Positions 55,992-58,543 of a stretch of DNA of 64,000 bases are shown piece after piece. The notes beneath the pieces are model-generated. The model had not been told where the DNA came from. It saw only the letters and a list, made by a program, of their open reading frames with translations, and searched no databases. How positions within the stretch are numbered: the stretch's first letter is position 1; every line of letters starts with the position of its first letter. A program made the position numbers and the translations under genes. Source of the stretch: Candidatus Kaiserbacteria bacterium (lineage in GTDB: Bacteria; Patescibacteriota; Minisyncoccia; Phycocordibacterales; Phycocordibacteraceae); NCBI GenBank assembly GCA_016217905.1, contig JACRFL010000013.1, positions 3,184-67,183 on the forward strand, in the 5' to 3' direction.

Positions 55992-58543
<2,552 letters not shown>

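Follow-up and report, generated by a model that had tools for sequence, protein, structure and literature searches.

An in-frame TGA in pheS of a Candidatus Kaiserbacteria MAG: most probably a consensus error of one base or a minority variant

The in-frame TGA that interrupts pheS, the gene encoding the alpha subunit of phenylalanine--tRNA ligase, in a deposited Candidatus Kaiserbacteria bacterium MAG is most probably a one-base consensus error or a minority variant, and not a translational signal. A sense codon occupies this position in a second, independent assembly made from the same population. Both a normal pheS and the standard genetic code can almost certainly be assumed for the organism. 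The working allele would read AGA (Arg149) and yield an uninterrupted PheRS alpha subunit of 244 amino acids, conventionally translated and terminated at its own TGA overlapping the start of pheT. The stop allele would then reflect a mistake in assembly or consensus calling, or else a rare, presumably non-viable variant taken by the path selection of the assembler.

The pheS gene and its in-frame TGA

All positions refer to the window, i.e., the whole stretch of 64,000 nucleotides that was analysed. The features around the stop are as follows.

57809..58543, minus strand: pheS (phenylalanine--tRNA ligase alpha subunit, short Paceibacteria form), 244 codons according to the translation
58099..58097, minus strand: in-frame TGA at codon 149 of pheS, with the deviation at window position 58099
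58100..58543, minus strand: N-terminal PheS fragment, 148 aa; exact-sequence match to the hypothetical protein HY972_02800 (MBI5405941.1)
57812..58048, minus strand: C-terminal PheS fragment, 79 aa, including motif 3; hypothetical protein HY972_02795 (MBI5405940.1)
58052..58090, minus strand: class II motif 2 region, starting two codons past the TGA; located by the alignment and the PDB PheS chains
57811..57809, minus strand: terminal TGA of pheS, in a 4-nt overlap with the ATG of pheT (ATGA)
55992..57812, minus strand: pheT (beta subunit, 606 aa), with the Pfam domains B3_4, B5, and FDX-ACB

When the minus strand is translated from 58543 to 57809, the frame is unbroken apart from the TGA and ends with DENRV before the terminal stop. 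The frame is identical on either side of the interruption. An earlier note, made from the sequence alone, had described a TGA at 58097-58099 within a continuous pheS frame and had stated that no indel accompanies it; both observations hold. It had also placed the stop opposite a glutamine in Escherichia coli PheS, and this agrees with the alignment (PDB 3pco: ...EEDLQIRFRPSYFPFTEPS). The base following the in-frame TGA is a G.

The intact allele belongs to the tRNA-synt_2d core family, as it matches positions 12-244 of the 246 positions in the PF01409 profile with an E-value of 1e-88. It aligns to PheS chains in the PDB at E=4e-74, and its counterpart in E. coli PheS is residues 102-325. The window PheS and its close Paceibacteria homologues are all short, about 240-250 aa, compared to the 327 aa of the E. 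coli enzyme. Since the window protein and its close Paceibacteria homologues align only to residues 102-325, they would be without the N-terminal coiled-coil arm, which in canonical bacterial PheRS touches tRNA-Phe.

Motifs 2 and 3 are invariant in an alignment of 30 homologues. In the motif 2 region, the invariant columns of this alignment are R151, R153, P154, S155, F156, F157, F159, T160, E161, P162, and S163. A PheS terminated at the TGA after 148 aa would be devoid of both motifs and inactive. Synthesis of PheS in two pieces by re-initiation was also considered and rejected. The ATG found in the ATGA at 58100..58097 is out of frame and opens an unrelated ORF of 45 aa, and motif 2 is not preceded by any in-frame ATG, GTG, or TTG.

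The best homologues, selected from several thousand, are 91-73% identical to the window protein over the full length. Among the 30 closest, the residue in the column of the stop is lysine in 19, arginine in seven, and glutamine in four, and the relatives displaying 91% identity have the codon AAG. Arginine is therefore the kind of residue to be expected at this site, and a single step leads from AGA to TGA. None of 120 homologues has a stop at codon 149. Neither the stop codon nor its context is thus conserved, given AAG in the relatives and AGA in the same population, while conservation is what would be expected for a programmed read-through.

The same site in an independent assembly

The population was represented by a second assembly through the Logan contig SRR12113407_92799 (L001, 3185 bp), which was assembled from run SRR12113407 and found by means of its identical PheT protein. 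It aligns to window positions 58993..55809 without gaps and with one mismatch in 3185 bp, and this mismatch is located at 58099. On the coding strand the base is A in Logan and T in the MAG, giving AGA (Arg) versus TGA. The contig consequently encodes, in addition to the identical pheT, an intact PheS of 244 aa, and the truncated PheS of 148 aa is recorded from NCBI only and is found in no Logan assembly. A sense base in an independently assembled contig with identical flanks is what an assembly or consensus error, or a variant not supported by the population, would leave. The earlier note had proposed that sibling assemblies be compared, and this comparison favours an error or variant. Three options had been put forward in the note, namely error, read-through, and selenocysteine-like recoding; the first of these, extended to include a variant, is the one that stands, while the other two are left unsupported. 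Genome contigs and JGI metagenome contigs were also scanned for the exact pattern around the pheS codon, which itself was left free as NNN, and gave no match.

The comparison could be extended to six Logan contigs (L001 and L008-L012) covering 20,812 window bases, i.e., positions 1-4498, 4924-10723, 20134-25346, 41969-44084, and 55809-58993. Only these 20.8 kb were comparable, as five of the 12 exact-protein look-ups returned no contig, likely because the genes are cut by the short Logan contigs or differ in the start. Two mismatches were found in the 20,812 bases, or about 10 per 100 kb, at 58099 and 3145, and both create stops. Such a low number of differences implies that the MAG and the Logan contigs derive from the same clonal population. 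[quoted passage not shown] The pheS case in this respect resembles the consensus errors and strain-path choices of short-read MAGs, where a lone mismatch separates assemblies of the same population at about this rate and where a gene becomes split into two annotated 'hypothetical proteins'. It differs from random errors of this type in that both of the mismatches found are nonsense. A literature search for premature stops caused by errors in MAG assembly gave nothing relevant.

The second mismatch belongs to one of two further in-frame stops. The earlier note had listed both as events similar to that in pheS, and both are indeed present in the window.

3144..3146, plus strand: in-frame TAG in a two-domain GH130 gene (1794..3710, plus strand); specific to the MAG
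8887..8889, minus strand: in-frame TGA in a 913-codon gene for a secreted LCAT-like/DUF7379 protein (10224..7483, minus strand); present in both assemblies

The TAG at 3144 behaves exactly like the stop in pheS. Logan contig L008 displays one mismatch in 4498 bp, the differing base is 3145, and the codon at 3144..3146 is TCG (Ser) in L008 versus TAG in the MAG. The GH130 gene is called intact in L008, with 638 aa, while its N-terminal piece of 450 aa is the hypothetical protein HY972_02570 at NCBI. The TGA at 8887 is of another kind and is real in the reads, as contig L010 matches the window at 100% identity over 2679 bp, this stop included, and the truncated product of 445 aa is recorded from both NCBI and Logan. 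The 467 codons past it stay open, the nearest homologue (73% identity) has a tryptophan here, and a C follows the stop. The stop at 8887 is either a fresh TGG>TGA mutation that turns the gene into a pseudogene, or a tolerated, leaky UGA-C that is read as tryptophan.

Random substitutions in these genes would create a stop in 3.3% of the cases (6.5% for A>T and 7.7% for C>A). The chance that both differences should be nonsense is then about 0.001-0.01, depending on the assumptions. Purely random error thus fits the two-of-two nonsense outcome poorly, and the outcome may be a coincidence. Owing to this excess, a small probability is retained for real nonsense alleles or for a tolerance of stop codons. 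The MAG-only changes, A>T and C>A, are both transversions in the direction of A/T. Deamination and ancient-DNA damage were discarded as causes, as neither change is C>T. A systematic creation of palindromes was likewise dismissed. The pheS change creates TCATGA and that at 8887 creates GACGTC, while the one at 3144 creates none, and this is not significant when about 10% of random substitutions would create a 6-bp palindrome and 24-34% a 4-bp palindrome.

The bearing of the assembly method on the pheS base is twofold. De Bruijn assemblers normally output only k-mers present in at least two reads, and some reads would therefore be expected to carry the TGA, which counts against a consensus error. 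MEGAHIT-type assemblers, too, output k-mers that are present in the reads. This speaks for a reading in which a true nonsense allele of pheS segregates in the population, either in dying mutants or in some of the copies within polyploid cells, with the AGA copies supplying the function and no read-through taking place. The assembler of the MAG would then have taken the TGA path and Logan the AGA path. If the MAG stems from He et al. (2021; PMC7906910), the method was MEGAHIT followed by IDBA-UD scaffolding, which would agree with this course of events. A literature search on run SRR12113407 led to no paper, and this run did not turn up in supplementary material of He et al. It is also in line with such a reading that a nonsense variant does occur in the population, as TGA 8887 is found in both assemblies, and that two out of two MAG-only differences are nonsense, which fits poorly with random error. 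However, a pheS null is lethal and should not become frequent enough for an assembler to prefer it. Natural variation would be expected to bring synonymous and missense differences in much greater number, of which none was seen in 20.8 kb, and no Logan assembly contains the truncated PheS. A segregating nonsense allele is on balance unlikely. Our inference is that the base giving the TGA is either wrong or a minority one in the reads. Were it dominant there, it would represent a tolerated nonsense mutation in an essential gene, and only then would it be of interest; as it stands, the pheS TGA carries little biological weight and serves as a useful remark on the quality of the public data.

Termination, recoding, and second copies

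TGA is a normal terminator in the window. In a greedy and approximate set of 51 long ORFs, 20 end on TAA, about 19 on TGA, and 12 on TAG, and TGA is the stop of rpoB, rpoC, dnaE, and, at the conserved C-terminus, of pheS itself. Codes 4 and 25 are excluded on this basis, as a genome in which UGA was reassigned would not be expected to use it as a terminator. The gene for release factor 2, prfB, whose loss would go with such a reassignment, did not occur among the proteins scanned in the window, which covers only part of the genome. The earlier note had considered a genome-wide reassignment unlikely, and the essential genes ending on TGA support that judgement. Of the two examples it had named, dnaE is correct, while rpoD (26101..24860, minus strand) ends on TAG.

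Some CPR lineages do use code 25, and a CPR host with an in-frame UGA is what this organism shares with the known cases of codes 25 and 4, where UGA is read as glycine or tryptophan (the CPR Absconditabacteria/Gracilibacteria and the Mollicutes, respectively). It differs from them in being a GC-rich (about 58%) member of the Kaiserbacteria/Paceibacteria with TGA as a frequent true terminator, and the relatives have neither glycine nor tryptophan at the pheS site. About 19 of the 51 long ORFs end on TGA at the expected C-termini, and in-frame TGAs number only two in 64 kb. A reassigned TGA is for these reasons hardly credible. The same applies to the view that pheS is a pseudogene backed by a second copy. 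There is no second pheS in the 64-kb window, and apart from its one lesion the gene matches the intact allele at 100% identity, where a decaying gene would be expected to show more. The earlier note's view that pseudogenisation of pheS is implausible is in accordance with this.

Recoding of the UGA is not supported either, since TGA is an ordinary terminator and neither a SECIS-like fold, an Rfam match, nor a tRNA gene was found. A segment of 91 nt (58110 to 58020), with 11 nt upstream and 77 nt downstream of the UGA, is not folded more stably than shuffled sequences (z=-1.13). No Rfam family reached its gathering score across the 64-kb window, and none was found at E<=10 within 57800-58300. 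ARAGORN identified no tRNA or tmRNA gene within the window. The search downstream of the UGA for a SECIS-like or read-through structure, suggested in the earlier note, came out negative.

Insertion of selenocysteine directed by a SECIS element, as in fdhF, has as its sole point of likeness to the present case an in-frame UGA within an otherwise intact, conserved ORF. In pheS, in contrast, the UGA is not followed by a hairpin just 3' of it, and Rfam gave no match to SECIS or tRNA-Sec. The UGA is not conserved, and the homologues have lysine, arginine, or glutamine (19, seven, and four) and never cysteine or selenocysteine. The position is not catalytic but a variable basic or polar site beside motif 2, and the sibling assembly has AGA. 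This leaves selenocysteine with a probability close to nil.

A leaky UGA, read through by a near-cognate or suppressor tRNA so that full-length PheS is made from the TGA allele, has somewhat more to be said for it. The site is variable and of a surface type, where K, R, and Q (Gln in E. coli) are found, and could accept a substitution, and the ORF past the TGA is fully intact. There are moreover three in-frame stops in 64 kb, and the one at 8887 is present in both assemblies, faces a tryptophan in the nearest homologue, and is followed by a C. UGA-C is the leakiest termination context in E. coli. Reading of the UGA by a near-cognate tRNA-Trp is thus conceivable at 8887, whereas pheS differs in having AGA (Arg) as the ancestral codon and a G at position +4. 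The same population has AGA at the pheS site, the base after the TGA is not a C, no stimulatory structure was found, and there is no suppressor tRNA within the window. The stop is conserved in 0/120 homologues, TGA precisely ends many essential genes, pheS included, and a cell relying on read-through of a few percent for an essential synthetase would be severely handicapped. Read-through of the pheS TGA is accordingly very unlikely.

A broader version would be that the population carries true nonsense alleles, three in 64 kb with that in pheS among them, which are tolerated through leaky termination at both UGA and UAG. The leakiness would come from a suppressor tRNA or from release factors of low activity, and the reading rests on the excess of stop-creating differences together with TGA 8887 at a tryptophan position. 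It is slightly more doubtful still. If true, stop codons in a GC-rich CPR lineage would here be at an early stage of reassignment, marked by ambiguous decoding.

The deposited record and the wider gene context

The two PheS pieces and ten other proteins of the window, including RpoB, RpoC, DnaG, DnaE, GyrB, and RNase R, have exact matches at NCBI. The matched proteins all belong to one 76,600-bp contig of a Candidatus Kaiserbacteria bacterium MAG (HY972_ tags). The stop in pheS is therefore a part of the public record and has not been introduced later. As a result of single-base discrepancies, this record shows a GH130 enzyme (HY972_02570) and an essential synthetase (HY972_02795 and HY972_02800) split into 'hypothetical proteins'. 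Such splits can reduce completeness estimates and mislead the inference of metabolism and genetic code for CPR genomes. Exact-protein look-ups in independent assemblies are a cheap way to settle cases of apparent recoding.

The 79-aa HY972_02795 (MDAWFEP...) is annotated from an ATA start, which looks like a gene-calling artefact of the split gene. Elsewhere in the window, rpoB, rpoC, dnaG, and rpoD form a compact string at 24860..34754 on the minus strand, where the TGA of rpoC lies 3 nt from the ATG of dnaG. The long ORFs found antisense to this string, for instance the one of 1098 aa at 26372..29668 on the plus strand, are GC-driven artefacts.
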